A stretch of 64,000 nucleotides of DNA from Pseudovirgaria hyperparasitica (Eukaryota). Below the pieces are notes generated by a model that ran no database searches, was not told the origin of the DNA, and saw only the letters and a program-made list of their open reading frames with translations. The first letter of the stretch is position 1, and each line of letters opens with the position of its first letter. Below are positions 10,483-37,189 of the stretch, one piece after another. The translations under genes and the position numbers were made by a program. The stretch lies in NCBI GenBank assembly GCA_010093815.1, contig ML996572.1; one strand, written 5' to 3'.

Positions 10483-10772
10483 ATTAGTAATATATATAAG
10501 ATAGGGATTATTTAAAGGCGCCTATTTCTATAATAATAATAATAATAATAATATTAGTAAACTAGGTAGAGTACCACTCTATAGGCGCATACCTCCTCTA
10601 GTCTAAGCTACTATATAAGAAGAAACCTATAAATAGGAAAAACTCCCTTATATCTATAACTACGCTCTATCTATCCTCTCGTTCTTTATATATATATAGC
10701 CCTAGGGGCTATCTATAGGCCTATAGCCTATATTATAATAGTTTACCCTTAGGTAGCACGTATAGATACGGA

Positions 10773-10807
10773 GATTATTAGTTAAGGGCTACCCTTAACT
10801 AATAATC
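10773..10807. repeat. L2 3' palindrome
   Basis: gattattagttaaggg-cta-cccttaactaataatc. Confidence 0.95.
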
Positions 10808-13800
10808 GCGGTTCTCCCGGGGTTCTTCCGATATATACCGGGGTTCTTCTAGTATATATCGGGCTTCTTCTAGTATATATATACGGGTCTACTAGAACTA
10901 GGGGAGAGGAAGGTATATAAGTATCTATCGGGCGACGTCCTTAGAGTACTTATTAAGCTATTATATAATATCGGAGGTTCTCGTTATATAGATAAGGGCT
11001 TATCTTAGAGTATAGAGACTAGAGTACGTCGTAAGGTAGTAGCGTATTATACCTCTCTAGCCGTAGTCCTCGTACTAGAGAGATATATCTAGGATACCTC
11101 TCTAGTAGAGATAATATAGAAGATCTATAGCGCCTATTCGGGCTTAGAGGAGTATAGATGCTTAGGCCTTTATTAGCCCTTTATATATCTATTTACTCGG
11201 TTTCTTCTAAGGCCCTCGGATCTATTCTAGATACCTATTCTATTAGGAGGCCTACTAGGCTTTAAGTACCTCCCTCTATTTATTCTAGATCTATAACTAT
11301 ATAACGCGGCTAAGCTCCTTAGGGCTCTATTAGCTTAGGACGGTATCCGGGTTATTTTAAACCTCCTATATAGTCTAGCTTAAGTCCGCCTCTATATAGT
11401 ATTTATATTATACTTAAGTTTATTCTATAGTAGGGAGGGCCTAGTAATATACGCGGATACGTGTACGTAGTACAGCGAAGGTATATACTCTATCTCCTCT
11501 ACGTTCTTATACTTATTATTTAATAAAGTATATAAGTCTCTATATCTAGTAGAAGTTCTATATACTTATTATATTTATCTCGTGTTAGAGGAGCGTTATA
11601 TTAGTAGCTTTATATACACCGGAGATAAGGCGGAGTATACGGTTTTATATAGACTTAAGCTTTACCCGCTAAGCTTATATAAGGGCTATATACTAGTACT
11701 TGTGTCTATATATAAAGGCTAGGCGTGCTAGAGAGATATATAGCTATCTCGCCTTATCCTAGGCTATTCCCTATATAGATACCGTAATCCGGCGTATAGC
11801 GGTTTCTATCTAGAGGGCTCTAGAGACGCCGTATACTATCTATAGTCCCTATTTTAGCTTATTATTAATTATGATACCGAGTACGCGTATACTCTATGCT
11901 AGTAGTTCTATAAAGGCGTCGATTTAGGGGCGACGTGCCCCCTCCCTAGTAGCCTATTCTCTATAGCGGTTAATAAAGTACATAAGCTAGTATTTTTTAG
12001 GTGCGAATTTTACTCTATAGCGCTTTATCTACTAGACGTATTTCTCGTGGTCTCGTTCGAGTCGTGTATATATTCTACTAGTACTACTATCGACCATAAG
12101 GAGGTATATATCGTCCACGTATCTAACTATCTCTATATATTCTATTCTCTAAAGGAGGTCTACTATAAAGAAGAGGAAGAGAATCGGGGAGATAGTACTC
12201 CCTTACAGGATACCGTATACCATCTCCTTATATTCACTTCAGTATCCAGGAATATATATTTAAGTAGTCCTTTACGCGAGGAAGGACTATATAAATTATA
12301 TAATCTACTTAGGTATTCGCCTTATCCGGAGGTTATAGATAAGTCTTATATAGTTTACCTTATTAAACGCCTCTACTATATCTAGGGAGAGTAGTATAAT
12401 AACTCGTCCTTATTTCTATATAGTCTAGATAACCTTAAGGATATATTAAATAGCTATAATTAGGGAGCTTCCTACCTTCGCCTTCTAGTTTACTAGGAGA
12501 AGGCCGTATACCTATACTACTATACTTATCTTCTTAGTAATTATAGCTTCTAGTACCTTACTAAGGTAGAAGAGGAGGGCGATCGGCCTCTATCCCTTCG
12601 GTATATTTAGACTCTTCCCTAGTTTTAGAAGTATAACCGTATATATAGTTTAGAAGCTCTATAGGTAGTATCCTATACGGGCGCACGCTCGGAATATATA
12701 GCCTATAATTAGTAAGGTCGCCTATATAGTTCTCTTAAGGCATCGATTCGGAATTCTATCTAGCCTAGGCGCTTTATCGTTCGGGAGTATCTTAATAGCG
12801 CCGAGTATATCGTCCTCCGTGATTTCTCTAGGGATACTTATAGCTTCCGGGTATTCCGTGCTATTAATATCTAATAGGTCTATAGGTTCTAGGAGAGGTA
12901 ATATAACCTCTTATAGAATCTCTATTTTCTCAAGGCTCGTGGAGTATGTCTTTTCTTAATATATAAGGGGAGGTATAAGTGGTGTAGGTGTCGGGGAGGC
13001 GGTGCTTTTGGCCTATTTTACTATATACTATAGTCTAGTAGTATTACGTGTATATCTATCTATAACTATATACTACTATTTATATTACTCGTTACGGAGG
13101 ACCTTATCTTATTATCTTCTCGCCTCTCTCTATTTATCCTATACTTTAGGTATATGGTTATAGTATACGCGTATATATAATCTCTAGACTTCTCGCCTAT
13201 GCTCTTATACTTAAGGTATACTTTTCGGGTCTAGGGGTCTATATATTTAGTACGGCACGTGTTTATCTCTTACTCCCTAGTACGCCTATAGAAGTATATT
13301 CACGGCCTAGTCGATGGCCGGGCCATTAGATACGTCGACTATAGACGGGTCTAGGATCGTCGATTCTAGGTCCTTTAGGTACTTTTCCTAGTTAGTATCC
13401 TTCTATAGCTATTACCCTCGTTAGTCTTAAGGGGTAGATACGTCTATTACGGTCTCTATATATTTATAGTCGGAGTCTATCTATATAAGGCTTAGGCGGT
13501 AGTATTAAGTCCTATTATAAATATATCTAGTGGCTAGGGTAAGGTCGAGTGTAGATCCGCCCTTATCTTATTTATATTTTCGCTAGGTAATCTATTCTAC
13601 TAGTATAAGAAGGTATAGGAAGCCGTAGTATTAGATATATAGTTCTCTAGCTTAAAGCTCTTCGCGGGTAATAGTTAGTCTACCCTACTAGCTATAATAG
13701 AGGTTAAAGTCTCCTAGGAGGATATATTATCCTAGCTCGGTAGTACCCTTAAGCATGTTATCTACCTAAAGTAATCGGTTCTAATTATATATATTATATA

Positions 13801-14123
13801 TATAGAGGGGTCCGATATTTATCTAGAGGTGTAGTATTATTTAGAGGTTATTCCGTTTAGTATACGACTATAATAAGAGTAGAATAGACTTATAGATATG
13901 GAAGAGGACTCTCCTCTCCGGTCCTAGGGGGTGTATTATATAATATCCTAGGTGTATTATTAGTTTATTTATCTAGTAGTATTTATATAGCTCCTATATA
14001 GCGAGTATTACAGCTCCGGTCTCCTCGAGGAGTATTACCTAGTTCTTACGTTTATACTATACGTTTACCTATATAATTAGGAGTATATCTTGGTCTCTTA
14101 TTAGGTACTAGGGAATATATAGG

Positions 14124-17100
14124 TGTAAGAATAGGGTAGTTGGATAGTAGTGTAGCCAGATGGAACAATGGGGTGTATTCTATTATAGAACGAATTACTA
14201 CCGAACCCTTTCGGTAGGAATCCGAGAGTATATATATAAAGGGACGCCGATCTATCTAGCACGTAACTATTTACCGCCCTTCACGTCACCTCCTAACCCT
14301 ATTAGCTAAGGTATATATAGATCGGGTCCTACCTAAGGCTAAGTCCTAATAATTATCCCTCCCCTCTAGGAAGCTACCCTTAGCGACCTAGATCGTTACC
14401 TATCCCTATATCCCTATCCTAAGTCTCGTAAGACCTTAGTCGTTCTCTACGCTTCGTCTTAGATACTTACCGATATTCGCCGATCTAAGATTTACATAAG
14501 CGTTTTCCTAATAAACTAGATTTTATCCATCTTAACTTCTTATATAGGTGAGATTGCCTAATTAGGCCTAGCGTATTACGTGATATGATTAGGTAAGCCC
14601 GGGTACTACCTATATTAAAATCTTTTCTTAGAAATATTCCTTTCTTTAAAAAACTTCTTAACTCTTTATAGAGTTTTTTAGATTATTAGGTATATTACCC
14701 GATCCTTATAGATATAGATTTATATAGATTTACTACTATTTAGTGCGATTTACGTAATTTACTAATTTTCGTACCGTCCTTAGCTAGAAATAACATAATT
14801 CGTAATAATCCGTATAAATTAATAATAATTATAATATAGTTTCCCAAAATCTCGACGCTCTAAAGTAATTAGCGCGGAAATAGGCGCCTTCGAATAATCC
14901 CTATCTCGTATATGTTACCGACATGTCGAAAGCCATCGATCTACCCCGACCTAGGCCGGGCTCTAATAATCTAGCTATATATTATTATGGTTGTCGCTTT
15001 CCGTCGTATATTGCTTACGGTAGTACTAAATCTATAATATACGGTACTTATATAACTAAGAAGCGTTATTACTTATAGGTATTTAAGTAAGTTCGAAGAA
15101 CTTTACGTAGATTTACTTATATCGGTATAGATTACTACTAGGCCTCTAGTAACCCCTACTAATAAGGAGCGTGGTACTACCGATCGTAACGCCTTAGAGA
15201 AGGCTTTCTACGAGCTATATACCTAAGGTAAGGGTTACGCCTAGGAGTACGATTCTAATAAGATCCGTAAGGGTTTATTAGAATCTACTATAGCTATTAT
15301 TACCGCGATTACTAGGTAATATCGTTTTTCTTAAATTATTATAGATTCTTACTAATATGTATTAATCTCTATAATAGTGCTAAAATCTCTACTACTTCGG
15401 ACTTCTTTCTATATACCGGCGATATTAAAATTCCTAGAAAAGGTTCTAGTAAAAAGGCTAAGGTTCCTTCCTCGCGCGTGCTAAAGAGCCGTAAATTTAG
15501 AGAAGATGGCTCTAATCTAGAAGTTTCTATACTAACGGTATATGGTTCTATACCGATCGTTGAATCTTTTCGCTAATTTATATAATTCTTAGCGTGCCCG
15601 CGCCGGTCCGTCCCTCTCTATCCCGGGTTCCGCCGCTCCGTAGGTTTCTATAGAAGAGTTCATAGCTATAAGGCGCGCTATATAGAATTTATAGCATCGG
15701 AATAAAAGGCTAGAGACTTATATTATAAAGCTCTATACTATACTAAATAAGAACTAGCGGAAGGAATTAGATGCAACCATCGCGGTAATTAGTACTTCTA
15801 CTCCTACTCCGACTTAATCGGTTTAGATCTACACCAATCGGTGCTAATATATCTCTTTTATCTGGCGTTTTGGTTTTTTCGGTTTTAATTTTAAAGCGAT
15901 CTTACTTCTTCTAGATAGATTAGTACGAGTTTATATAGATCTATATAGATCTTTATATTTTCTTTTAGCTTTCTTAATTTTATCTTTCTTTAATAATAAC
16001 TTCTTTAATCTCTTTAGTAATCTATACCGATCTATACCGATCGGCACCGATTTTCGATGTCCATTTCTCTTAGTGAATTATTTTTCTAAGTCTCTTTTTT
16101 AGTTAATTTTTTTTTAAAGTTCTAAGTTCGAACTTTCTAAGGAAGTTCCTCAATTCCTTAGAATGTTTTAAAGATCTATGTCTCTTTCACCTTCTTCCTT
16201 TTAGGCGGCCGTCCTTAGCGCCGAACTATACTAAAAAACATCGAATTACCGTACTTTAGCATAATTCTCTGCGATTCCGCGGCTTCCTTTGCTAATCGCT
16301 ACTTATACGCTAATATCGCTGCTTTACTAATGTATATTACGGGTTCCTAAGTATCTTCGTTAGGATTATACCCTTTCTAATGAATTTTATATAGCCACGT
16401 GCCATCTTCGGCACGTTATTAGCCTAGTATCTACTTAACTTCGTAGATATCCGCACCTCCCTACGTAACTACTTTATATAACATCTATTTAGAATAATCC
16501 GGTAACGATAAGGCATGGAATAGCTCGAGAAGCGTGATATGGAACATATTATATATCTTTAACGTGGGAGGGAGTTTCAACTCATACGCCTGGTCATTGA
16601 TTACACGAGTAACCTTAAATAGACCTATTATCGTGTAGTTAAGCTTCTTCTTCAGCCTAATACTACGAATATTCTTACTATTTAGTAAAACTTTATCTCT
16701 AATATTAAAGATTATAGGCTTTCTACCCTTATTATGGTACGATTTACTATAATCTATAGTATCTTATAATAACTTTATAACGCTTCTTTACGTTTAGAAT
16801 AGTTCTATCGTAATCTCCGTCGCCTTAACGTTAGGCTACTCTGATTTATACTAAGTTCCTATAAACTATACTTTATGGTTTCGACCGAAGTTTGCTTTGA
16901 ACGGACTTACGTGGGTTAACGCATGTCGGCTATTATTATACGCGAATTCCGCGACATAGACTAACCTTACCTAGTTATCTTACTTATAGTTATAATATAC
17001 GCGTAAATACGCCTTAACTATCTAATTCTACCGCTCTATCTACCTATCTATTTATAGGTGGAACGTGGTACTAAGTTTCCGCTTAATTCCTAGTATATAG

Positions 17101-20100
17101 TAGAAATCCTTCTAAAACTTAGACGTTATCTACGGACCTCTATCCGAAACTATACCATTCGGTATACTATAGAGCCGAACTACGTCACGAAGTAGTATAT
17201 CTATAAGATCCGGTGCTTAGATTATCTTCCTTATAGGGATGTAGTATAACATCTTCGTAAATCTATCTAGAACTACGAGTAAACTATTATAAACATACCT
17301 AAGATACTTACTTAGGGGTAGATCTGTGATAAAATCCATCGATAATTCTTTCCATGCCTCATTTAGCATAGGCAATGGCCTTAATTCACTATATAGCAAG
17401 TGTCTATATACTTTCGTATGCTGGTAAACGTTACACGTTTTTACGTAGTCCTTTATATACTTATAAAGACCTAGCTAGTCGTACGTCCTTCGGATTAAAT
17501 CGACCGTCCTTATAACGCCGAAGTGCCCTACTAACGCGTAATCGTGCTATTCCCTTAAAACATCGATTCGTAAGCCGCCTTCCGGCACGTAGAGTCGGCC
17601 TTAGAAGTAGATCGCGTCCGATCGTCGTTCCTACCTTAATAACCACGGCGGTTCTATAGCTATTCTCTTTATACTTATAACTTTCTTTACTAATATATCG
17701 GAATTCTAGGTAGATTTAATTAAGTCTTTAAGGATTTACTCTGTTTCTTGGACGTTAGTTTAGATTACTTAATACCCGCTCTAATTCCCGCGGAGAGTCG
17801 CCGAAAGTGTCCTAGCTTCCGGCACTCTATTAGATAACTAGTCTTTTAGTATCTATAGTATAGTATAGTCTAAATTACACCGACTATCTACGTTATTCTA
17901 CGACGATTTCTCATAATCTTTACGCCGTGATAGAGGATCTGCTTTATTCTCTCTTCTAGCTTTATATAAGATTTTAAAGTTAAATATTAACATCCACTTA
18001 GCCCAACGTACTTATCGGCGATTAAGGACCTTAGTCAATATAAAGTAACGTAGATTTGCGTGATCCGATAATAATTCAATCTAATATACAGAGCCTTCTA
18101 AATAATATCACTATTACTTAAAACTCTTAATAATTACAAGTAGTTCCTGGTCGTACGTGTTATAACGCGTCTCTATATCCGCCATTTTACGGGAAAAGAA
18201 GGCGACCGGGTACTATTACACCTTATCTTTCATATCTTTATACGGTTAACTAATGATTCTAGTAATTACGAATCTAGATGCGTCTATTTCGACCTAAATA
18301 TGCTTCTCGGGATCGAAATGCCTAAGAATCGGCGTAGTTATAAAGTAATTCTTTAACGATCGGAACGTATCTCGCGCTTCCGGCGTTAACTATATCTCGA
18401 CCGACTTAGCTTTACGCTATACTCGCCCACCTATAGGGATTTTACCGCCATTCTCGATAAGTTTATTAAGCGGCGCCGCAATTCGTAAGAAACCTATAAT
18501 GAATTTACGATAATAGTTTACGAAACCTATAAACGTCCTGATTTAACGTATAGTAGTAGGTTCTAGCCATTCTATAATGGTCTTAACACGCTCTAGCTCC
18601 ATTTTAAGGCCGCCGTGTATTATAATAAAGCCGAGAAACCCAACTTCTTATTAGTAAAACTTATATTTAGACAACTTTACGTAGAGTTTATACTGTCTTA
18701 AACGATTTAGCACCAATTTCACGTGTTCTTCGTGATCCTACATGCTATCGGAGTAAATTAGTATGTCATCGAGGTAAACTACGTAGATTACATTAAGTAA
18801 TCCTATAAGTATAGTATTAATATATCCTTAGAACGCTCCTAGCGCATTTATTAGCCTAAACGGCACAATAGTATACTTAAAATAACCATATCTAGTCCGA
18901 AATGCGGTTTTCCACTTATCTCCGCGACGGATTCGAAGCCGGTAATATATATCTCATAAATCTAGCTTCATAAAGTACTTTGCCTTCGTTAATTAGTCTA
19001 AAGATTTACTAACTAATAGTAATGGGTGACGATTCTTCTTAGTCACTATATTTAGTACTCGATAGTCGATGTATAGACGTAAACTTCCGTCTTTCTTCTT
19101 CACGAAGAGAATAGGTACGCCGGCTAATAATATACTACGACGTATCTAGCCTCTTCCGAGATATTCTTCGATATATTTATAAAGAACTTCGAGTTCTAGT
19201 CTCGAAAGTAGGTAAAGTAGACTATAAGGGACGTCTACTCCCTCTTCGAGCTCGATCTTTAGCTTATACGGCCTATGGTTAGGGAGAAGTAACGCGTCTC
19301 CTACCGAAAACACATCCGTATACTACGAATATACGTCAGGTAGCGTGTCTTTACCCCGATTATTACCATCCTCTTCATCTTCATCGACGATCGATAGGGA
19401 TATAAGATAGATTAGCAACGATCGGGTCCGCACGGCGAGGTTCCATGCCTCCTTACTAATAGTTACGACTTACTAGTATAATTTACCGCGATGTCGACGG
19501 AACGTTAATGTCTCCTTCTAAAAATCGAGGATTGGGTTTAGGCGTTTAAGCTAAGGCATCCCTAGAATTATATTCTATTAGCTAATATTAGCCACGATGA
19601 ATTCATTAGACATCTACTATTTTATTATCTTTGAGTTATGAACTTCGTAATTCGTTATAGTTTTACCTAAAGTTCTAACTTTATGTCTATTAACTACAAT
19701 GGTTCAGCTAACTTTACTAAGATCGTATAATAATCTATACTCCTTAGCGAGAATCGATAAAATATAGTTATCTTCTATACTAGTATCCACGAGGGCCTAT
19801 ATAGTTTTATTACCATTTACTATAGATAACGATACTTTTAGTAATATTAGGTCTTTACTCGCCGGAAGGCGCTGCGGCTCCTCCTAAGTATATATAATTT
19901 AGCTAAGAACGCGGTTAGGTCTCGCGTACTAGCCTATTCTTTTTTTGGATTCTTATAGTTAGGCGAAATATATCCCTTTTCTCTATACTTATAGTAATAA
20001 AGTGCGCTATGATCCTACTGTTTTACGATAGGCGTTACATTTAAGCCTATGCCTTATCCTTTTCCGTATTAGGAACCACCGCCTCGATTGTTTTAGTATC

Positions 20101-21509
20101 CTCTTAACGCGTTTCTACCCCGATTTACGCTCTTCTAGCGTTAATCGCGGTAAGGTTACTCTTAATCGAACGTATTCGATCGACCTCGTTTCTAACCCGT
20201 ATAGGGTTCGTCGGTTTTGCCTAGAGAGCCGCGTTCCTTAAGGATGCGGTAGTGTTCGTTAGCTTTCTCCTCTAATTTATATAGATGGTTAAAACTTAAT
20301 AATACTATTCCTAATCTTTCGCGGATTAACGGGAGTAGTACTTCGCGAAACTAGAATATACGAATATTTTCCTATAGTATAGGGATATTATCCTAGAGGT
20401 TTTATAGGTATTATAGTAGTTAAGTAGGTGTCTGGTTCGGTCGTTATACCACGCTTCTTAACTTAGATAGTACCTTTCTTTCGCGTTCTCCGTTAGTTCC
20501 GAGGGTATTTAGTATAAATATAGCTAAATACTCCCAGGTTGTCGCCGATAGTAGCTTGGCTTCTTTCTATCTATCCTATTAATCGCGGGATTATGAACCT
20601 AAGTAACGTTCTCCGAATGAAATGCGTTATACTTCGGTAGAAAAGAGTATAGGGTTGTTAAGGAAGTACTTCTCGTAGTCTCTCTTCTAATCTTTCCACT
20701 TCTTTTGGTTCTTCCCTATAAATATAGTCGGATCTTTAGGTTTCGGCACACCTAAGGAGGGAGTAGGGTAAATTGGTAACGAAGCGGCCGGGTATACGGT
20801 GGATTATCGTAACTCTAATGGTAGGTGAACTAATTCCGCCTGAATTAGTATAGGAAGTCGTCCACCTACTATCGTTCCGCGTAGTCTTTTAAGAGACTCG
20901 TTAAGTTCTCGTCGTTTTGCGAGGAGTTTCGTACGTTCGGTCTATTCTTTAAGGATCTATATCTCTCGGGCTTGATTGGCGATGTGCTCCTGTAGTTCGG
21001 CGATTAATGGTTGTAATTCCTTGTATAGCTCTGCCACGACTCGTTGTCTAGCTTCCTATCATAGGAAGTCGCTTAGTGTATCTACTATTTCCTTATTAGA
21101 AAGTTCCGTGATTCGGTCGAACATCTCTACTTCTCTATTAAGAACGGCCGGATTTAATACCGATTATAGAGGATCCCTGTTATTTAATGTAGTGTTACTT
21201 GTCCCTATAGTGGATCGTGTCGACCTTCTTGGTTCTAGTTGGACTATCTTAACTATAGTACTATATAGGGAGTAATTCGAATGTAAGAATAGGGTAGTTG
21301 GATAGTAGTATAGCTAGATAGAATAATAGGGTGTATTCTATTATAGAACGAATTACTACCGAACCCTTTCGGTAGGAATCCGAGAGTATATATATAAAGG
21401 GACGCCGATCTATCTAGTACGTGACTGTTTACCGCCCTTCACGTCACCTCCTGACCCTGTTAGCTAAGGTACGTGTAGGTCGGGTCCTACCTAAGGCTAA
21501 GTCCTAACA
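14124..21509 (-). mobile_element. Gypsy chromovirus copy A2, full length, inserted near the ORF1/ORF2 junction of L2
   Basis: LTRs at 14124-14351 and 21282-21509; TSD ATAGG at 14119-14123 and 21510-21514; intact RT YLDD codons at ~18765-18777 (minus). Confidence 0.97.
14923..15817 (+). pseudogene. Antisense accessory gene copy in A2
   Basis: ATG at 14923; colinear with 2044-2938; retains a TGT (Cys) codon at 14992. Confidence 0.8.
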
Positions 21510-22953
21510 ATAGGCCTATATATTTATTCCTCTAAGACGCGACTATCCTCGTATAGCGGCAGCCTTAGTAATTCCTTAGGGCTATCCTATTATTAGCTTT
21601 CTCGGGATAGTTTACTATTTCTAACTACTTTCTCGTAAGGAGGTAGTCTATAGTAGTAGTATTATAGTAAAGAGAGGAACGGTAGTAGATTACATTATTT
21701 ATAGCTACCTTACTCCCTTTATCCGGATTAAGTAGATATATTTAGTAATCTATTTGCGTTTCGTGCACGTAGCCGACTACGATAGGTGCTTACTATCGTA
21801 GTTAGAGTACTTCGTCGTATCTCTATCCCTCTAGCCCTCTCCTTATATCCCGTAGGGGTACTTCTAGATACTATATTCTTATTAATACTATCTATACCTA
21901 GTCTTTTAGAAGTACCGCTATACCGTATATCTATATCCCTAATAGTTAAAGTACTATATTATCGCCTATACTCTATCCTATAGTTCCGCTATAAGAAGCT
22001 CCCCTTCTACTAGAAATCCCTCTTACATAATTTAATATACGAGGGCGGGGTCCTTAAGCTCTACTATTATAGTAGAGTATGCCTTTAATCTAGTTTTAAT
22101 CCCTTATATATTCTTCTACTATACTCTTATGATCTTAATCTCTAGGTATTTTTACTCGTTTAACTATTCTATCCGTGTGATATCCTCTTCTCTAATAATC
22201 TATCCGCTTATAGATATAGAGTATATCTATATCGGGTATATGGCCGCTCTAATAGAGGCGCCTAGGAAGATACTACTAATCGCGTTTAGATTACGCGAGA
22301 TAGTCTACTACGCGATATTCGTTATTATAGTAAGTACTACTCCTTCTAGCGTAAGTTTAGCGGTAATAACATTTAACTATATTCCCTTTTATTTATTAAT
22401 CTTACTTACTATATCCTTTAGGGATGCTTACTAGACCTATACTAGGGTATCCTTATCCTAGATTATAACGTATATACTATACGCCACATCACCGGTCCGG
22501 GGGGCCCATAGTATAGCCTCCGGTATTACTACTATTTATACCTATATACTAGGGCGCTTACCTTAAGTAAGTTCCTCCTAGATTCTATATAGACTAGCCT
22601 CTATTCGGTTAAGCCTACCCTCCGGTCCTCCTAGTTATATCTTCTTCTCCTCCTCTATAATTCCCTTTAGATTCTAGATAAGATTCTAGAATATATATAG
22701 AAGGGTCTTCTAGCCCTCTCCGGCTTCCTTCTCTATATATACTACCTAGTAGTTAATATAATCTAGAAGGGTTTCCCCTCTCGGGGTCCCCTTTATTCCG
22801 TCTATCTATAGTAGCGTACGCCTTTAGGTATATTCTATATTTTAGATAGGTGTATAGTTACCCTTAGTAATATCGCTATATAGCCTTTTCTATCGTACCG
22901 GTAGGGGTATATCCGGTATATACTAGGGTATATTAGTGCCTAAGGCCGCTATA

Positions 22954-22986
22954 TTTATTAGTTAAGGGCTACCCTTAACTAATAAA
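22954..22986. repeat. L2 5' palindrome, immediately upstream of ORF1
   Basis: tttattagttaaggg-cta-cccttaactaataaa. Confidence 0.95.
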
Positions 22987-23770
22987 AGGGGGTCGGCGTA
23001 TTAGTATTCTAGTAGCGTGGTCCGTGCCTCTATCTCCGTGAGGATTTTAAGAGGGTATATATATATCTTTATACGGTAATAACGTCTTGGTTTCGACGCT
23101 ATACGTATATACGTGTAGTAGTAGTTAGTATACTCGGTATACTCTATTAATTAAGATATGTATCTCGCTATATTACTCTAAATAGACTAAGTTAGCCTCT
23201 TAGGGATGTAAAAGAAGTTTTGATTTTAAAGTTATCGCCTATTTCTATACTAATTACTTTAGAGCGTTAAGATTTTAGAAAACTATATTATAATTATTAC
23301 TAATTTATATAGATTATTACGAATTATATTATTACTAGCTAAGGATAGTATAAAAATTAGTAAATTATATAAATCATACTAAATTATAGTAAATCTATAT
23401 AAATCTATATCTATAAGGATTAGGTAATATATCTAATAATCTAAAAAACTCTATAAAGAGTTAAGAAGTTTTTTAAAGAAAGGAATATTTCTAAGAAAAG
23501 ATTTTAATATAGATAGTATCTAGGCTTATCTAATTATATTACGTAATACGCTAGACCTAATTAGGTAATCTTATCTATATAAGAAGTTAAGATAGATAAA
23601 ATCTAGTTTATTAGGAAAACGCTTATATAAATCTTAGATTAGTAAATATTAGTAAGTATCTAAGACGAAGTATAGAGAATAACTAAGGTCTTACGAGACT
23701 TAGAATAGGGATATAGAGATAGATAATAATCTAGGTCGCTAAGGGTAGCTTCCTAGAGAGAAGGGATAAT

Positions 23771-23998: not shown

Positions 23999-24301
23999 CT
24001 AATAGACTAATACTTAGAGTTTCTAGGCCCTGGAACCCTTAGAAAATTATCTAGTATACTTATAGCTAAAACTTCTCACACCCCAACGGACTAAACTGGT
24101 TAATTCGGGGTAAAACAGCGATTTACATACATTAAACGATAGAGTATACCGAGTATAATAACCTCCGACATACGTGCGTACGTGTAGCGTATAATACGCG
24201 ACGATACCAACGTGTAGAGATACTATATATATACGCTCGAAGACTCTTCGATAACACGAGCATAGACTATATCTAATAAACGCCGACACGCCGACCCCCT
24301 T

Positions 24302-24332
24302 TTATTAGTTAAGGGCTGCCCTTAACTAATAA
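24302..24332. repeat. L3 5' palindrome, 2 nt before the ORF1 ATG
   Basis: ttattagttaagggc-t-gcccttaactaataa, then ccATGG. Confidence 0.95.
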
Positions 24333-24863
24333 CCATGGCGGCCTTAGGTATCGTAATACCCTAGTATACGCTAGATATGCCCCTACTAGTACGGTAGAAA
24401 CGGCTATATAGCGACATTAATATAGATAGCTAGACACCTATCTAAAATATAGAAACTAACTAAGGGTGCGAAGCGCTATAGAAAACCTAGACTAAGGGGA
24501 CCCTAAGAGGGGAGACCCTCCTAGATAAAATCGAATACTAGGTAATACGTATAGAGAGGGACGCTAAGGAGAGAAAGAAGACCCTGTTAGGACGGGAACT
24601 ATAATAGACCTATATAGACCATTCTAATCCATGTAGCCACGTAGTGGCTAGAGCTAGGTTAAGTTAGCTAAGTTAAGCGAGGTTACTATATAAGTAGACC
24701 ATATAAACCGATTCCTACTTATTAGGAATTAACCTTATATAAGAGTAAGATTACTCTATAAATATATTCCTATATCTCTCTATGAACTATTAGACTACTA
24801 TCCTACGTCTTTACTCTTTATATTTTAATTCCTCTCTATATAGTATAATAGTAGCTTATAGAG

Positions 24864-26246
24864 ATGGCTTCTACTACGCGCTATAATACCCGTGGTACTA
24901 CCTTATATAAGAGACTCTCTCTAAATCTAAACGAAGAGAATAGTCTCCCTACGACCACCTCTACTAATAAGTATACTCTATAGACTATTATACTAATAAC
25001 TAGTACGGTATTCTATATAACTATAGAAGATTACCTAGATAATAAGGAAGGAGTCTATTATACTCTATTGCGGTCTAGTTTATACTATACTAGACCCATC
25101 CTTACTATAAGACTAGACCCTATTAACGTTAACGAATTAATTCATTAGAACTAACTAACGTTAACCACGCCTTACGACGACGTATATACTAAGCTATACA
25201 CGGAGAGGTAGCGTTAGGCTTAGCTTAAGTAGTAACTTCGCGAACTCGATAAAGCGCGAGGACAAACCGCTAGACTCGAAGCCGTACTACGCGCTTTAGT
25301 ACTAGTAGTAACTAACCTATACTAATATAGACTAACTTAAGCCGAAATAGTCTAACTAAGTCTACTACTATCCTAGTTACCTTAGCCTAAGAAACTATCT
25401 TACTTCGACGGTAAAACCAGGAGGAGCTTTTATAAATAGACTTACTAGTATAGCCGATTCTTCTACCTATTCATAAACGATAGTAATAAGATTAGGTTTA
25501 TATAGAACTACCTAGACCTAACGCTATCTAAACGTTAGATGGTATATCGAATTAAATACCCTAAGGATACGTATAACTAGGACACGTTTACTAAATTCCT
25601 TCTTTAATACTTCGGTAATAGAGCCGAGCGACGCGAATAGGCTTAGAGCTATATCTTTAAGACTTAATAGCGAGAGAGATAATCCCCGTTATAACTTCTT
25701 AAATACCTCCGACCTCTTTAGAGAGAAGCTAAGAAAGATTATATAGTTTAATAATACGACGACTTTAAAAGGTCCCTTAACCCGAGCGTAAAGGAATACA
25801 TCGACCTTATAACGTCTATCTCTACTAACCTTTAGGCACTCGCGAATCTCGTAGAACGATATTAGTATATAATGAATAACTAACGTCGTATAGGTATATA
25901 ACTATCTCTATTAATCTAATCCGATGCGAAATCGTCTAAAGAGGACCGGTTTAGTAATAGATCGCGCGGAATACCTCGTGGGTACTACCACTCTACGAAC
26001 TCGAGAAGACGAGACCCGTACCGCGGATCTTTCTACTAGTTAATATATTAAGACGCGAGAAACGACTCGTATAAACGACCTAAAGTTACCTACTATACCT
26101 ATGGTAGAATAGGCTATATAGTACCCGAGTACCGCTTAGGGAAACCACCGAATACTAATATAGATACTAAGTTAGTTATATACTATAAGTGCTAGTAGCT
26201 AGGACATATCGCGCCTAACTATCTAGTATATAATATAAAAAACTAA
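24864..26246 (+). pseudogene. gag: B1 gag
   Basis: ATG at 24864; de-RIPed knuckles CYTCGRIGHIVPEC (~26091) and CYKCQQLGHIAPNC (~26181); ends A-AAA-AAC-TAA. Confidence 0.8.
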
Positions 26247-29200
26247 CTATCTATAAGGAACCCTCGCGACTTATAGGCGTAACTAAAATAGAGGGATAAC
26301 TAGCTAACTAGTATATCGAACTATAGGCTAGGCCTATCAAGGTCCCTCGTGGATAATATTAGACCGTAATACTTAATAGCGGTTTAGCTACTAACGTTAT
26401 ATCAACTTAACGAGCACAAGAACTTAATATTAATATTTAAGTACTAATAGATACTACCTTCTATAGTATCGACAGTCCTATTAAATCATAGGGTACCTAT
26501 ACTATTAAATACAGTATCTAGGATAGCGGGGGGAAGTGGAAACCCTACTACTTAACCTTTATCGTGGTAGATAGTCCCTTTAACATGATCCTTAGTATAC
26601 TATAGCTCGAAAAATATAACCCGAAACTAGACTTTATCTAGAAAACAGCTGGCTAGCGCATATACCCACTATAATAGAACCTAGTATAGCTAGTCGACGA
26701 CGAATAATTCTAGAAGGACTATAAAAAGGTAATCTCCGCTATCTACGTCCTCTTACTTACTTAAAATAGAGAGCTTAGTATTAAAGTAGACGAAAACCTA
26801 CTATATTAGTATAAAATATACTAATATATCGCGTTAGCAATCAACTCGTCCGAATTACCTTAATACTAATCTACTAACCTTACTATTAACCTCGAAGACG
26901 GTTAATAACCCCTACACGGACCTATCTACCCTCTATTAGAACCCGAGCTATAGGTCCTCCGAGAATATATCGAAAAGAACCTTACGCGAGGATAGATTAG
27001 GCCTAGTATATCCCTAGCCGGAGCTCTAATCCTCTTTATAAAGAAGAAGGATAGAAGTCTCTATCTATATATCGACTACCGTAGCCTAAATAACATTACG
27101 CGAAAGAATCATTACCTACTACCTCTTATCTCCGAGTCTATTAATAGACTAGAGCGCGTGAAGATCTTTACTAAGCTCGATCTACGCGACGTCTACTACC
27201 GCCTATATATTAAGAAGGGCGATAAGTAGAAAACGGCGTTTAGGACCCGTTATAGATACTTTAAGTATATAGTAGTCCCTTCTAGACTAACTAACATACT
27301 AGGAACCTTCTAAGCGTATATTAATAACGCGCTAGTAGGTCTACTTAACACGACGTGCATCGTATACCTTAATAATATCCTTATCTTCTCTAATAATAAA
27401 GAAGAATATATCTAGCACGTACGCGTAGTCCTAGATAGGCTAGAAAAACATAAGCTATATATTAAGCTATCTAAATATAAGTTCCACTAGGACTATATTA
27501 ACTTCCTTGGCTTCGTTATTACTAATTAAGGTATAACTATAGAAAGGGATAGAGTTACTACTATTATAGACTAGCCTAAACCAAAATTAGTTCGAGATAT
27601 ACATGTCTTTATTAGATTCGCTAATTACTACCGAAAATTCGTTAAGCATTTCTTCCGGCTAGTAGTACTACTTAACGCGCGTACTACTACTATAGATTCG
27701 TCTATTACGGTCCACGGTAGATAGAAATAGCGTAATATTAAATTATAGTCTATAGAATTATTAGAAGGCGAAAGGGCCTCCTTCGAGAAAATCAAAGAGG
27801 CATTTATAACTACTCTATTACTAGTGCACTTCGACCTAACTAAACCTATCCGCGTTAAAACTAACGCGTTAGGATTTATAATCTTAGGTATTCTCTCCTA
27901 GCCTAGACTAACTAAGTCTAAAAAGGTCTAATAGTATCTAGTTACGTTCTTCTTACGCAAAATAGTCGATATTAAGACTAGATATACTATCTATAACCAA
28001 GAGCTACTAGTAATAGTAGAGTCGTTTAAATAGTGGCGATATTATCTTAAAGATACCATATATAACATCGAGTTACTAACTAATTACTATAACTTAAAGG
28101 GGTTTATAAGCACGACGGTTTTAAACCGTCAATAGGTCCGATAGACTAAGTAGCTTACAAACTTTTACTTTATAATCTACTATTAACCTAGAAGTATAAA
28201 CCTAGCTAATAGAATATTAAGAAGACCTAACTATAAAGAAGGCGCCTAGAATTATAGTAGCTATAGGGTTCTAGAGTAGCTATAGGCCTAACTCTTAAGG
28301 ACGAGGTTAGATTTTAAGTTATTAGGCGATTAGCGAGATGCTAACGTCGATGCTAGTAATCGAATCTCTAAGACTAAAGCTAGTAACTAAAGACGCGGTA
28401 CTAAAGTCCCTAGTAGGCCGTTTATTAGCGCTATCGGGAAGGGCGATAATGCCCGGCGTAAATATCTAATTAACCTTATCTAGTTAATCGTGGATCTATA
28501 GAAGATAGACCCGATAGTTTTAAAGTTACGTAAAATATAGTAAGATAGGTTATTACGGACTAAAGTAGACTATAAGTAGACCTTTATGGACGGCTTACTT
28601 TACTATAATAGAAAGTACTATATACTAATAGATAACACGCAATTTAACGTAGTTAGCCGATACTATAACGCTAACCTAGTAGGATACTTTGGGTATATAC
28701 GTACCCTAAGCTTAATTCGTTAGTACTATTTTTAGGAAGATATACCTAAGTACGTTAAAGAATAGATAGCTACTTATCCGATTTATTAAAGAACGAAGGC
28801 CCCTAGGCATAAGCTATATAGGAATTTATAGCCTCTTTTAGCCCCCCTCTTTATATAGGAAGACATTACTATAGACTTTATAGTTAACTTATCTCTAAGC
28901 GAGATACTTAGAATAAGTTATAATTCTATTCTTATTATCGTGGATAGACTTATAAAGATGTCTAGGTACATCCCGGTATAGAAGACGATTATATCTAAAG
29001 AACTAGCGTAGGTGTTCTAGAACGAGATTATTAAGGTCTATAGTATACTAAAAAGGATCGTTATAGACCGAGGAAGTACCTTCACGTCTAAATTCTAGAC
29101 GTTAACCTAAAAAATAGTAAGTATAAATAGAAACATGTCTATAGTATTTTATCCTTAGACGGATAGCTAGATAGAGCGATAGAACTAGACGCTTAAGGCC

Positions 29201-30060
29201 TACCTACGCGCATTCTATAATTTCGAGTAGGATAACTAGGCCTCCCTACTAAGCATAGTAGAGTTCGTATATAATAATAGTCGTTATAGTACGATAGATA
29301 TTATACCTTTCTAGGCGAACCTCGGACGTAGTCTAAGGATAGGTTTTAAGCCTTAGACGGTCTAATTTAATCGAATAATAGACGTGAACGTCCACGCTTA
29401 GAAATTAGTAATTAAAATCTTTAAAACCGTACGTAACTATCGCGCTATAATCTAATAAGTAAATAACTCGTATATAAAGTACTATAATAGATTAGCTAAG
29501 GATTAGACGTACGAGGAGGGCGATAAGGTCCTTCTTAACGTCTATAATATATGAATATCATAAGTAAATAAGAAGCTCGATTATAAAATAGCTAGTCCCT
29601 TCCGAATTAAACGTCGTATTAGTATAAGAGTCTATAAGCTTAACTTAGAAAGTAATATAAGAATCTATAACGTGTTCCACGTCTTACTACTCGAAAGATT
29701 TTAACCTAACATGTATGGCCGTATGAACGTGTAGTTACACTCTATTATACTCTAAGATAGACTAGACGTATTCGAAGTAGACTATATTATCGAATATAGG
29801 ATTAATAAAGACGGTGTTTAGAAATATAGAATCCGTTAGACGGACTATACTAAGGACGAGGACACCTAGGAACTAGTAGTATATATCTTAAGTTCTATAA
29901 TGGCTGCGTATAAGTAAAAGATATAGAATAGCGTATTATTAATGTAAGTATAGTAACGTCGCGGTCGTTGTAAAAAGAAGAAGGATACTATAGAGAACGA
30001 AGTACTAAACTAGGAAATCTAGACGCGCACTAGGAAAACTCTATATAGTAGCCCTATAAT
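26237..30060 (+). pseudogene. pol: B1 pol
   Basis: RT motifs [22 protein letters not shown] and YLNN (RIPed YLDD, ~27365); integrase; chromodomain. Ends approximate. Confidence 0.88.
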
Positions 30061-30551
30061 TTAAGTATTATACGGTTACTAGACGCAAAGAAAGCGTAAA
30101 TAACTATTTTAGAAACGCGACGCGACACACTATAATAGAATAACATAGAAGAGTCTAGAATGGACTAATATAGACTATTATACACGAGAAAAACATAGGA
30201 CTAAGAACCTAAAAAAAGGTACCCTACTATAGAATTAAACTCTTAATACGAAATATAAAAGGTTAGAGTACCCGAACTAATAACTACTAGGCCACTAGTT
30301 CGGGTACTCTAATGGAATTCATAGAGATAAACTAATTTATATATGGTGCCTATACTTAGGTAACTTAAGGAAAATCAGAATATAGAAACCGATAGTTATA
30401 AGCTAAGTAAGCGTATATATAATATCATTAAGTTAAGAATTAAATTACTAGAAACTAGCTAATAGGTATCTAAATGGTCTAAAAAGGACTAAAATAGATA
30501 AAAGCCAGGTAAATAGAGCCGGCGTACACCACCTATAGTAGATCTAGAATA

Positions 30552-30640
30552 TATAGAGCTAGATATAGAGCTAATATATAGAGCTAGACCATAGAGCTAA
30601 TATATAGAGCTAAACCCATAGAGCTAGAACCATAGAGCTA
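30552..30640. repeat. Tandem ~13-bp ATAGAGCTA-core repeat, 7 units in B1 (4 in B2 at 39217-39265)
   Basis: gagct cores at 30556, 30568, 30581, 30594, 30607, 30621 and 30635. Confidence 0.85.
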
Positions 30641-31950
30641 CTCCTCTATCTTATTATCCGTCCTAACCTCTAGCATAGTCCTCTCTAACCGCACGATATA
30701 GCGGCGGAGGATAACGACCTTAGTCTCTAGAGTAATAACCTAATCCGTTAGAGTCTAGAGGGAAGAGCCTTAAGCGCCGGAGCGTAGCGACTAGGTCTAA
30801 AGTTAGCTAATATAATCTAGAATAATCTAGAAGGGAATATATACCCTCTTATAAGGCGACTTAGAGGGAGAAATAGTAGACCTCTTATAAGATCTATTAG
30901 TAGCGCGAGACGGATAGGGGGGGATAGAGCGAATCCTCTCTATAGCCTCTATGGCTAGAATAGACTCTCTAGAATAGGTAGTCTAGGCGCTAGGGATCTC
31001 GCGGCGGCTAGAAAAATTAATAGGTATTAAAAATAATTAACGTGCTTATAACTTATACTTTAATAACCTCTAGGAAGAGCTTATAGCGCTCCCTAAACTC
31101 CCTCTATATAGTAGGTAGGCGGCTATAAGGACCCCTAAGGGTCTCGCGGACGCGAAGGTCGTTATATATATCTTATATATATATAGGAACCTAAGAATAT
31201 ATTAGCGCGGACTACTTTAGATTATACTAGATTAAGATAGCCTATTATACTTACCTATAGATAAGTCTTACTAGTTACGGTATAGTGGCGGTAGCGGGTA
31301 GATAGAGTAAAGATAGGGCGTATAGGCCCGTCGCAGTTAGTAGAGTAGTAGCTAATACTAGAGTTAGAGCGAAAGAGATATTTAGAGCCGGCCGTATAGC
31401 CCTTAATATACTTATAGTATATTAAACTATAGTTCGCTGTTTTCCTATAGCGTAAACCGTAACTACGTTTAGTATCCTCGGCGACCTAGGCCTTATTATT
31501 AGTAGGCTAGGGTTTAGAGCGAATATTAAGGTCCTAAAAGAACCTAGAGTAACTAAATTAGTCTATGTTAGACCGGAAGGAAGAGCGGCGAGACGGCGGC
31601 GTAGGTAAGTATAAGGGCTCGCGATTATCATCTATAATAAGATCTTCTTTATCCTCTAGAGGAGGTAGAGTAGGCGGTATACGCTTTAGAGCGAGAGGGG
31701 AACCTATAACCACTTTATCTATAAGTTTAGTACTAGGATTACCTAGATTAGAGTAACTAGTAGCTATATTAGTGGTAGAGGCAGTAGTAGTAGTAGCCCT
31801 AACTACTCTCTTCTCCGACTTAGAGCGTGCCTTCATACTACTATAATAGGTAGACTTCTTAGCCGGCGTAGCCGGGGAGAAGGTAATATCTTTAGAGCGA
31901 GTCTTATAAGAGGAGGAGGTAGGCTTAGAGATAGGACTAGTATTAGATAT
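30638..31950 (-). pseudogene. Antisense accessory gene of Gypsy family B, copy in B1
   Basis: Includes ORF 31558-31836; canonical intron 31191-31254 (GTAAGT...GCTAAT...TTAG on minus); colinear with the B2 copy. Confidence 0.78.
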
Positions 31951-34900
31951 CTATATATATACGTTAGCTAGAGATCTAAGGAAGGAATATTCGTCTACCC
32001 TTAACGGCGATTAACGAAGCTAAATTAGTAACTATAATAACGCGAATAGGTTATATTAGACCGGTTCTAATAAGAATAGACTACTATAGACCCTTCTAAA
32101 CCTAAACTAGAGAAGATAGTATATAAATTAACGACTTACCTTAAGAGCGAGGTAGATATACTAGAGAATAAAATTAAAGGCGAGTGAAGCTAAATATATA
32201 CTCGACTAAAGTAGCGATTACGTGTTCTAGGTAGTAGCTATAAAGTAAGGGATGAGCGCGTGTATAAACTAGTAAAAGTAAACTAGAATCTCGAGTTTAC
32301 CTATATTAAGGATAGTTATAACGTTATAGGAACTTAGTTATAGATATATAGATATACGATAGATTATAGAGACTTAGAATTATATATACTTAAGTGCTTT
32401 AGGGCGAAGCATAAAAAGAAGAAGGATATTATTAGGACGGGAACTATAATAGACCTATATAGACTATTCTAATCTATGTAGCCACGTAGTGGCTAGAGCT
32501 AGGTTAAGTTAGCTAAGTTAAGCGAGGTTACTATATAAGTGGACCGTATAAACCGATTCCTACTCGTTAGGAATTAACCTTGTATAAGAGTAAGATTACT
32601 CTATAAATACATTCCTATGTCTCTCTATAAACTGTTAGACTACTATCCCACGTCTTTACTCTTTATAGACCCTCCTTTATATATTCTAGGACCTTATCCG
32701 GAACCTAAGAGGAATTACAGAGGAAGAAAGGAAGTCGCCACGAGAGGAACCTAGTAGTAGGCTCGACCGAATAGAAGCTAGCCTACGGAGAATCTAGGAA
32801 GAGCTATCCTAAGGTAAGCGCCCTAATACGTAGGCTTAGATTATAGTAATACCCGGAGCCACCGTACTAAGAACTACTAGAACCATAGATAGAGTATATA
32901 GTATACGTATTGTAATCTAGGATAAGGACACGCTAGCATAGGTCTAATAGGCATCCCTAAAGGAAATTATAAATAAGATTAACGAATAGAAAGGAATGTA
33001 GTTAAGTATCATGGCTACTAAAGTTACGCTAGATAGGGTAGTACTTACTACTATAACGAATACTACGTAGTAAAACATCTCGCGAGATCCGAACGCGATA
33101 GATAGTATCTTCCCTAGCGCGTCTATTAGGGTAGCTATATACCCGATTATAGTATACGTAGTACCTATGCGGGGATAGGCTATTAGAGCGGAGGATATTA
33201 CGCGTATAGAATAATCCAACACGTGAAAATACCTAGGGATTAAGATTGTAAAAGCGTGGTAGAAGAACCTATAGGCGATTAAGAGGACGGCGAAAAAACA
33301 CTCTACTATAATTATAGAGCTCTAAGACCCCGCCCTTATATAATATATTATATAGAAGGGATTCCTAATAGAAGGAGAGCTTCTTATAGCCGAGCCATGG
33401 GATAGAGCATAGGTAATAATATAGTGCTTTAACTGTTAAGGGTATAGACATACTATATAAAGGTACTTATAGAAGACTAAGTGCGGATAGTACCGTGGGG
33501 ACCACGCTATCTAAGAGTACTCTTATAAACCGCGAGGAGACGGACTAAGAAATAGGGATATAGTATAGTATTTAAACTACGACGGGAAACACCCGTCGTA
33601 GTCGTTAACGTGTATAAAACGTAAATAGGTTATAGAATATATTCGCACGATAAAAGCGAGAGGCGCGAGATAGTTATAGAATATAACATCTACCACGAGC
33701 CCTTCCTTTATAATACCCCTAACCTCCCCTCTAGAAGGTAGTTAGGTGGGATAGTAGACTATCCCGAAGACGATAGGACGACTAAAAGATATAGTTAAAG
33801 CCGCTACCGCGCGAGGATAGTCGCGCCTCTAAGGAATAAGTATATAGGTATATATACTCTCTAGTATCTAATAAGGGACTAGAATATACTCCGAATTATA
33901 TAGGTAAACATATAATATAAAAGAGAGAACTAGGCGACGCTCCTCGAAGAGACCGGGGCTATAATACTCGCTATCTAGGAACCCTATAAATACTACTAGA
34001 CGAGTAAACCAACCATATACCCCGGATACCATACTATATACCCTCTAGGACTAGAAAGACGAGTCCTCTTCCACATTTATAGGTTAATACTACTCTTATT
34101 ATAGTCGTATACTAAGCGCGATAACCTTAGGATAATACTACACCTATAAATAGATATAGGCCCCCTATATATATATAATATATATAACTAATAACGTATA
34201 CTTATACTAGACGAGATGCTCGAGGGTACTACGGAACTAGGGTAACACATCCTTCTAGGAGACTTTAACCTCTACTACTAATAGTAGAGAGGCCTAGCCG
34301 TGGTTAGGGAAGAACTTAGAGTAAGGGAACTACGCACCCGCTACCACGACTTCCTATACCTACTTACACCTATAGAATAAGTTATATAGAAAAAACATAA
34401 ATAGAACAAAGACGGGTCCACGCTTAACCTTACCTTCGCTACGGAGTATATTAGTTACCGGATCTAATACTACCGCCTAGGCTAGGTATAGACGGATTCC
34501 GACTATAAATATATAGAAACTATAATAAACGTGTATACCCCGAATAAATAACGGGGACGATGGATATAGAAGGATACTAACTAGGAAAAGTACCTGAAGA
34601 ACCTAGAATCAGCGATCCTAGATCCCTCTATAGTCGATATATCTAATAACCTAGCTATAGACCAGGCCGTATAGATACTCCTATAAATATACTAGAATAC
34701 GAGAAATAAACACGTACTATACCGAATATACCGGCCCCCGGAAGTAAAGGGGATTCCTTAAGTACGGGAAAGTAGATAAGACGCCCGAAGACTATATAGA
34801 CGTATATACCGTATAAGAATACCCGAGTTATAGGAAGAATAGAAGGAAGCGATATGATAACGCGATAAAGTCCTCTATAATAAAAGGCGTAAATAGTAGC

Positions 34901-37189
34901 GTATAATTACTAGTTAATAGATATAATATGTAATAGGGCTATGGCGTATGGCGAAATGGGCTAAGGGTATAGATACTCCGATACCCCCGCTACTTATACC
35001 TCCCCTAATATATTAGGGGAGAACATACTCCACGGGCCTTAAGAAAACTAAGGCCCTATAGGAGGCTATATTCCCTCTCCCGGAACTAGTAGACCTATTA
35101 GACGTTTACGGCGCTAAATATCTACACGCGGTAGACATCCCCGAAGAAGTTACGGAGGAGGATATACTTAATATTATTAAGACACTCCTAAATGATAAAG
35201 CACCCGGACTAGATGGAATTCTAAATTAATACCTAAAAAGTACTATAAAAGTAACCCTACCACTTATTACTCGTATATTCTAAGCATGCGTCACGTAGGG
35301 GTACCACCCCTAGAGCTTCCGAGTCGCCTATACTATTATACTCCCGAAACTAGAAAAGAGCCCTAACTCCCTAAAGGAATAGAGACTAATCGCCCTTCTC
35401 TTCTACCTAGGTAAGATACTAGAGGCTATAATAGCGAAGAAGATAAGTACCGCGGTATAGGAATATAATCTCCTCCCTCCGAACCAGAAGGTAAAGATAG
35501 ATAGCTCCCTAATAATAGCTATCTAATATATTATTAAAGTCGTCTAGGCCGTATAGAAATAGAGACGGGTAGTATCGCTCCTCTCCCTCGATATGGCCGG
35601 AGCGTTTAATAAGATAAACTATATAAGACTTATTTATAACCTCCGGATAAGACGAATACTAGAATGGATTACACGCTTTATATAGTTATTCCTTATAGGA
35701 AGAATAACTTAGATACATATCCCTAGATACTAGAGCGAATATAAAGAGACGGTATACGGCATCCTATAAGGGAGTACTATCTCTCTAATTCTATTCCTCT
35801 TCTTTACGGTAGACCTTCTTTAAGAAATGAAGTATATAGAGGTAGTCGGATACGCCGATAATATATACCTTCTAGCCATTAATAATAATACTAACCGAAC
35901 GTATAGACGACTAGAATAGGACTATAAGAGGTGCCTCTAGTAGGTAAAACGCCACGGAGTAAAGTTCGCCCTAGAGAAATACTAGCTCATGCACTTTATT
36001 AATCGTTAAGGGAAATAGGTAACTAGGGAAGGCGAACAACGCCCCTAAATCGACGTATTTAACGAACTACTAGTATAAAGCATACGCGCGCTCGGAGTTA
36101 TACTAGATGGTAAGCTTAAATAGGGACCATAAGTGGTATACGCCGTCTCTAGGGCCCTCTAGGTAGAAGCCACTATATAATGGATTATAGCCTCCACGTA
36201 GGGAACCGCCTAGAATAAGGCACGCTAGCTATATATATCTATAGTACGACCCGCCTTTACGTACGGACACGAGTACTAGTATACGGCCCTTATATAGACT
36301 AGGTAAATAAAGCTCGAATCCATATAGAACCGTATACTCCGTCTTATATTAGGCGTATATAAAGCTACTAATACGGTGCTACTACGACACGAGATAGACG
36401 TCCTAAGTATATATAACTTCTACTAGATATAGAGGGTAGTATACTTTACTAAATAATAAGTATAGGAACGCATAGGAAATGTAGAATATACTTTCGCCGC
36501 GATATGTATATAAATTAGTATATATTACCGCGCACTCCTATATATAGGCCGGAATCGAATATGGTATAGGTGCTTAATAGAAGCCGACTCTAGCTAAGTA
36601 GTATAAGAAGTCCGAGATAACCCGGACGCTCTTCTAGACCGGTAGAGCCTTTAAGAACTTATAAAAAATATATAGTCGTGGACTTAAGATAAGTAGAAAG
36701 AGGCACTCCGTACCTACTAGACCTTCTAGTAGAATAGGTATCTAGAGTAGATTCGAGGGCTATAGAAGGAACCGAGTAAATAGATATATAAAGGGCTAAT
36801 GAAAGCCTAAGTATCTATACTTATCTAAGCCCGAACGGGCGCTATGGAACTTCTATACTATATCTATAAGAGAGGCGTTCCCGATACCTCTCTATAGTAT
36901 AAGGCGTACGGCCGGAGAGGTATAATACGCTACTATCTAGCTATATACCCTAACCTCTATATATAACGGTAATAGCTTATCTACGTTACGAAGACTTTAG
37001 ATGTCGTATAATAGCTTAATAAGTACCCTAAGAACGTCTCCCGATAGATGCTTATATATCTACTACTCCTCTAGTACTAGTAGACCCGGAAATATATACT
37101 AGAAGAGACCCGGTATACGCCGGTAGTAACCCGATATATACCGGAAGAACCCCGGGAGAACCCCGATTATTAGTTAAGGGCAGCCCTTA

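Follow-up and report, generated by a model that had tools for sequence, protein, structure and literature searches.

The window analysed here, a 64,000-nucleotide stretch of a Pseudovirgaria hyperparasitica contig, is made up to ~56 kb of a RIP-mutated block of nested fungal retroelements, in which a 31-base palindrome (hereafter P) recurs beside LINE coding sequences (Table 1). An earlier note on this DNA had reported five copies, and all five lie where it placed them; four are intact, compared to 0.00 expected from 100 shuffles, and the fifth is split by an inserted LTR element. Perfect arms reach 542-576, 10773-10807 and 22954-22986. The details given for LINE L3 also hold, in that an ATG follows the 5' copy after a gap of only 2 bases and the ORF2 product ends EEPRENPDY, with its TAG inside the left arm of the 3' copy. 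The two other LTR families of the window are without P.

Table 1. Positions of P, its carriers and associated features (window coordinates except for the last row)
Feature	Position	Strand	Remarks
LINE L1 (family B), 3' copy of P	544-574	.	L1 3' end to ~812
LINE L2 (family B)	10529-23226	-	LTR element inside at ~14117-21510
L2, 3' copy of P	10775-10805	.	
L2, 5' copy of P	22955-22985	.	element on minus strand
LINE L3	24068-45486	+	RIP-mutated; APE + RT; (ATT)n tail; LTR elements at ~24572-32667 and 37190-45232
L3 5' UTR	24068-24301	+	last ~22 bases, CGCCGACACGCCGACCCCCTTTT, conserved with P across LINE families
L3 (family A), 5' copy of P	24302-24332	.	2 bases before ORF1 ATG
L3 ORF1 start codon	24335-24337	+	ATG 2 bases past P
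L3, 3' copy of P, left part	37167-37189	.	ORF2 stop TAG at 37171-37173
Target duplication CCTTA around LTR element splitting L3 3' P	37185-37189 and 45233-45237		
L3, 3' copy of P, remainder	45238-45245	.	beyond inserted LTR element
Gypsy accessory ORF, ~900 codons	L031:5701-8478 (G000:C4)		PhyH-like 2OG-Fe(II) dioxygenase core

The P-bearing element of the window is a true LINE with several families. An un-RIPed, internally deleted family-A copy (L071, on G000:C52), in which ORF1 is open from its ATG, has the order 250-base 5' UTR, P, ORF1, APE-RT ORF2, P, 250-base 3' UTR and (ATT)n tail. Its ORF1 carries three Cys/His knuckles, its ORF2 contains the LINE-type APE and RT domains PF14529/PF03372 and PF00078, and it has a simple-repeat tail and a target duplication of 15 bases without LTRs; tails were also found on 12/12 further copies. 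Named relatives are ascomycete RTs with 29-34% identity, and we take the element to be Tad1-like, as it has in common with Tad1-like fungal LINEs the 5' UTR, the ORF1 with three knuckles, the APE-RT ORF2, the (ATT)n tail and the 15-base duplication. P brackets ORF1-ORF2, as proposed from the window alone, in every LINE family whose two ends were seen. In family E the ORF2 reads through P and stops 24 bases later, and so the stop codon in the P arm is incidental. A joint skipping 1355-6419 of L071 was seen in two runs, which suggests either an empty site for the un-RIPed copy or a flank that is itself repeated. Immediately upstream of the 5' P (window 24279-24301 and 22986-23010) lie a CGCCGAC tandem and CCCCCTTTT, which are kept in families A, B, C and L069 (a diverged single-copy LINE) and are possibly part of an internal promoter.

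One LINE lineage lacks the left arm and centre of its 3' P, while keeping the right arm, and is present as 23 copies in the genome. Of these, 12 were checked, and all are independent insertions, each with a tail of its own and flanked by different sequence; at least two copies of the lineage (C6 and C34, ~4.8 kb) are full-length by spacing. As this half-site lineage amplified to 23 copies, the 3' P of the LINE is dispensable.

The native, un-RIPed arms of P are TTAGTCAAGG with a spacer of 5 bases; un-RIPed copies read ...TTAGTCAAGGGCWGCCCTTGACTAA... and were palindromic before RIP, the full un-RIPed P being TTATTAGTCAAGGGCWGCCCTTGACTAATAA. The earlier note's account would have failed if P were absent or non-palindromic in un-RIPed relatives; in the un-RIPed copies of this genome it is present and palindromic. 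The note had also supposed that RIP could not erode the motif and may have shaped it. RIP did change P, symmetrically, from TCAAG/CTTGA to TTAAG/CTTAA, altering the centre and a single CpA in each arm, but it neither spared the motif nor made its symmetry, because the un-RIPed copies are already palindromic; creation of the palindrome by RIP was thus rejected. The arm CpA is RIP-mutated in 11/11 and 15/16 copies (TCAA average 0.97) and the level of RIP is flat along the LINE (38 aligned segments), so that RIP at the arms is as frequent as at other TCAA sites and P gives no shielding from it. The CAG/CTG at the centre of the family-A P was RIP-mutated in only 8/16 and 8/11 copies compared to 0.96 at the GCAG sites of the rest of the element.

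A search of the whole genome with the general form TTAGTYRAGG-N5-CCTYRACTAA found 578 sites, all with the 5-base spacer (none had a spacer of 0-4 and none one of 6-20 bases), and the strict RIPed pattern found 471 sites compared to 0 for a control pattern. By their flanks, 164-192 of the copies are LINE 5' P, 191 are LINE 3' P, 126 belong to two sites (P1 and P2) of a Ty3/gypsy element and 62, found among 88 half-site matches, are a third gypsy site (P0); these classes account for at least 94% of the copies in the genome, the class total of 543-571/578 being approximate as the patterns used for the classes differ slightly. Of the 88 half-site matches, four others that were inspected proved to be three further-RIPed LINE sites and one unrelated match. 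The concern raised in the earlier note, that P might be scattered as an independent mini-element, was therefore not borne out, but its restriction to LINEs did not stand either, as P occurs three times in the gypsy element. Neither scattered independent insertions nor, among the 88 half-site matches, separated transposon-like ends of the kind expected of a MITE or DNA transposon were found. Loose half-site pairs were not enriched in host DNA (4 extra matches compared to 3 for the control).

Beyond this genome, the native P was absent from viral contigs and, searched with a stricter centre, from metagenome contigs, and the one match in prokaryote genomes, on an Acinetobacter contig, is read as chance since a motif with 20 fixed bases should match about once in 596 Gb. 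As to the check suggested earlier, on Tad1-type relatives, among 80 metagenome LINE relatives (23-44% identity, many of them partial) none had P or a matched bracketing palindrome pair, which sets the P-bearing LINE apart from other Tad1-like LINEs.

The second carrier, elsewhere in the genome, is an 11.3-kb Ty3/gypsy element unrelated to the LINE. Its 320-base LTRs are direct repeats ~11 kb apart, its P pairs are 7.3 kb apart, and its domains follow the gypsy order of RT_RNaseH and then Integrase_H2C2 (the latter below its cut-off). P0, a variant with 10-base arms, lies near the start of gag, ~500 bases past the 5' LTR. P1 and P2 are full copies, P1 being read in-frame between protease and RT and P2 covering the stop of an accessory ORF, ~150 bases before the 3' LTR. 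Some 20-30 bases of flank at P1 and P2 weakly resemble LINE flanks (5-6 of 3000 null draws), although these pairs are the best ones, picked after the fact from 160 comparisons, and the likeness is suggestive of copying between the elements.

The predicted product of the accessory ORF is helical towards its N terminus and combines a CxC...C..H motif with the PhyH-like core. PhyH matches were obtained for 9 of the 23 members of its family that were scanned (1 above the cut-off and 8 weak), and both H-x-D...H and CxC...C..H are kept across the family. A PDB sequence search with the accessory protein gave nothing under E 0.28, and matches in the Atlas, which serve as leads only, were to PhyH clusters at 0.83 and, for residues 1-200, at 0.76 without a family.

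The arms of P are conserved beyond their surroundings in some comparisons between diverged un-RIPed lineages. The 5' P of family A and that of L069 (X) differ at 0/26 arm positions with flanks 32% different (p<0.0001), and the 3' P of families A and F at 1/26 with flanks 37% different (p 0.0001); for families B and D the effect is weak (p 0.03-0.05) and for family E it is not significant (p 0.31), while the family C UTR matches that of A and so gives no information. Among the matches listed, the LINE 5' P is nearly invariant apart from RIP-type changes, with one other change among 100 listed of 162 and none among 100 listed of 192 in a second listing. The 3' P is under looser constraint, with TCGAG in 6 of 100 matches listed and TCGGG in 3/5 variant loci fetched. 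Read on the sense strand, most natural changes affect the left arm; in the 3' P, this arm shows two successive A>G changes that would keep G-U pairs. The spacers of un-RIPed copies (GCTGC, GCAGC, GATTC and CAATC) differ, and the orientation of the centre varies between families. Placement is independent of reading frame, as P is found in a UTR, over a stop, in-frame in gag, in the PR-RT linker and in family-E ORF2. Selection on the peptide SQGxPLTN was rejected as the main cause, given that the LINE 5' and stop-bearing sites are not read in that frame.

Because LINEs and LTR elements have no replication signals in common, finding one long site unchanged in both suggests either that they share a protein partner or that regulatory parts pass between the classes. 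Our best explanation from sequence, which may well be right but falls a little short of probable, is that P could be a double-stranded DNA docking site for a homodimeric sequence-specific protein which aids retrotransposon expression, and that it was copied between elements. Homodimeric DNA-binding proteins typically recognise inverted invariant half-sites around a free spacer of fixed length, and P has two invariant inverted half-sites of 10-14 bases, held at five unrelated positions in two unrelated element classes, with arms that keep their sequence instead of co-varying. That LINE copies missing half of the rear P still jumped also speaks for a docking site. A protein bound at P would keep the retrotransposons transcribed or resistant to silencing; the 5' P would form part of the LINE internal promoter, with the other copies as accessory sites, and short copying events such as template switches by reverse transcriptase may have moved P between elements.

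There are two candidates for such a binder. Each arm contains TTAGTCA/TGACTAA, which is listed as a Yap1 site (PMC6545440), so a host AP-1-type factor may bind here; P shares this heptamer with a Yap1/AP-1 element, but its conserved site is 25-31 bases compared to 7, and some P variants that amplified have a disrupted left heptamer. The other candidate is the PhyH-like dioxygenase of the gypsy element, which the LINE would exploit. By analogy with VANC proteins, this enzyme might dock on P as a dimer and remove a silencing mark, the LINE having copied the site to both sides of its genes to hijack the protection, but we regard this particular version as doubtful. If the partner were indeed the dioxygenase, there would be a defined enzyme-site pair for fungal counter-silencing, with an uncharacterised family of 809 relatives of ~900 aa behind it.

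Several results sit uneasily with a docking site. P offers no protection against RIP, searches with the accessory protein brought up no DNA-binding fold, and all 73 genome matches to the gypsy dioxygenase contain stops, yet un-RIPed, apparently recent LINE insertions exist. The loose half-site pairs are unenriched in host DNA, arm conservation is of weak significance for families B and D and not significant for E, and the bias of changes to the left arm and sense strand, together with the G-U-compatible A>G changes, leans towards RNA. A role in RNA, in which a local hairpin of 13-14 bp or a protein-bound right arm would influence how translation begins, how stable the RNA is or how it is packaged, in LINE and gypsy alike, is possible, though we do not think it likely. 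The hairpin that the earlier note proposed for each P can form (-18.1 kcal/mol) and appears in the centroid structures of both UTR regions, in three families only 2 bases separate P from the ATG, the right arm is retained in the half-site lineage and family E offers one possible compensatory pair. However, family E also has a C-A mismatch, and the arms otherwise keep their sequence at five unrelated sites rather than co-varying, so that the search for compensatory changes suggested earlier yielded that single pair; moreover the loop length never changes, the 3' hairpin is dispensable and there was no Rfam match. The more specific idea of the earlier note, that the 5' and 3' copies pair to close the LINE RNA into a loop favouring full-length copies, is very unlikely. 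In isolation the duplex is indeed stable at -53.9 kcal/mol compared to 2 x -18.1 for two hairpins, and 5' ends are common, with ~192 compared to 236 3' ends genome-wide, from which most LINE copies look full-length, a high share for LINEs. The half-site lineage nevertheless amplified and includes full-length copies, the family B centre is identical at both ends and would leave a central mismatch, and the gypsy element has three copies of P and no terminal pair, so that closure is unsupported.

It is unlikely, too, that P is a functionless passenger of master copies, such as a TA-flanked mini-element of 25 bases or a short patch copied in, with its symmetry kept by hairpin-templated repair. Its lineage-specific occurrence, with none in the metagenome relatives, its position in tolerant linkers and tails, the loss of the 3' copy and the weak likeness between gypsy P1/P2 and LINE flanks would suit a passenger, as would breakpoints at P in three cases (L069, L227 and the element inserted in the window). 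Against this, P is not scattered and lacks separated ends, repair would preserve symmetry but not sequence, whereas the sequence is retained between lineages that differ by 32-37%, and P would have had to become fixed five times independently in just two types of element. Inverted arms around a fixed spacer are also the form of a site-specific recombination site, which might excise, invert or swap the coding cassette, and in L069 one 5' UTR with P is fused to a foreign gypsy fragment; we think this highly improbable, however. The deletion check proposed earlier, when run, found 0 products (5'-flank/3'-flank hybrids) in the genome, and the 29 matches to an inversion pattern all end ATTA/ATCA, like family-C 5' ends, with 10/10 inspected being normal 5' ends. 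Contigs of 2 samples, in 4 sets, contained no joint between both sites; in L069 the junction lies at the outer edge of P, not at its centre; and no recombinase domain was seen in either element. Since the genome itself offers half-site, A>G and spacer variants as natural mutants, along with a LINE copy that is un-RIPed, the question of function is directly testable.

Among described systems, the precedent for anti-silencing is that of Arabidopsis VANDAL transposons, where VANC proteins and repeated element-specific DNA motifs are known and where an unrelated element, AT9TSD1, shares the VANC6 motifs and is affected too (PMC5735166). An element-borne accessory gene, repeated element-specific motifs and an unrelated element sharing them are alike in both cases. 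The VANC motifs there are non-palindromic words of 8-9 bases, densely arrayed in tandem in the non-coding parts of plant DNA transposons, whereas P, a putative binding site, is a long palindrome of fungal retroelements with 2-3 copies per element (3 per gypsy, 2 per LINE), rare elsewhere, which forms no such arrays and has 2/3 of its gypsy sites in-frame in coding sequence. The Conserved Hairpin Site of fungal GalEa Copia elements is likewise a conserved inverted repeat in fungal retrotransposons, with an extended form common to different families in a species; it is a single site immediately downstream of the 5' LTR, its 9-base arms enclose a loop that varies between 12 and 41 bases, and it is confined to Copia (PMC5445492). 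P has a fixed 5-base spacer, does not occupy the primer-site place directly after the 5' LTR but lies ~500 bases from it with two more gypsy sites, and is common to a LINE. Mobile elements carrying a 2OG-Fe(II) dioxygenase proposed to counter host silencing, as the P gypsy does, are also known: TET/JBP dioxygenases occur in fungal DNA transposons, the same study stating that it found no retrotransposon with them (PMC12730594), and an m6A demethylase domain is reported in orchid gypsy elements (PMC9289625). The enzyme of the P gypsy is PhyH-like and not TET/JBP or AlkB. No published description of P was found in the literature searched; supplements such as the extended-CHS table of PMC5445492 and Repbase entries could bear on novelty. 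P is thus a real, unusual, lineage-specific motif common to a LINE and a gypsy element, with a putative function.

Some individual loci deserve description. At L069:6150-8960 (G000:C47) the 5' UTR and P of the diverged single-copy LINE are joined, at the outer edge of P, to part of gag-pol from another gypsy family, which is inverted and un-RIPed. At L227:2180-2550 (G000:C36) a family-E LINE 3' end, broken off inside the left arm of P, adjoins and shortens an ORF that by its look is presumably a HET-domain gene. A lone un-RIPed P variant with the spacer GATTC lies at L056:1320-1700 (G000:C19) between two genes, which we take to be Myb-like and Tim15/zf-DNL-like, and is probably an old LINE 3' remnant; its origin as a solo P from a P-P deletion is unsupported, as the upstream sequence scored z -2.0 against the 5' UTR and, weakly, z 3.8-4.0 against LINE 3' ends. 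Within the window, both L2 and L3 have a second inverted repeat, ACTACGA...TCGTAGT, at the zinc-knuckle end of their ORF1 (21776-21802 and 33576-33602), which varies by family, and just outside the repeat block lies a host ORF of 459 codons (58807-60186), by its look presumably a glycosyltransferase.
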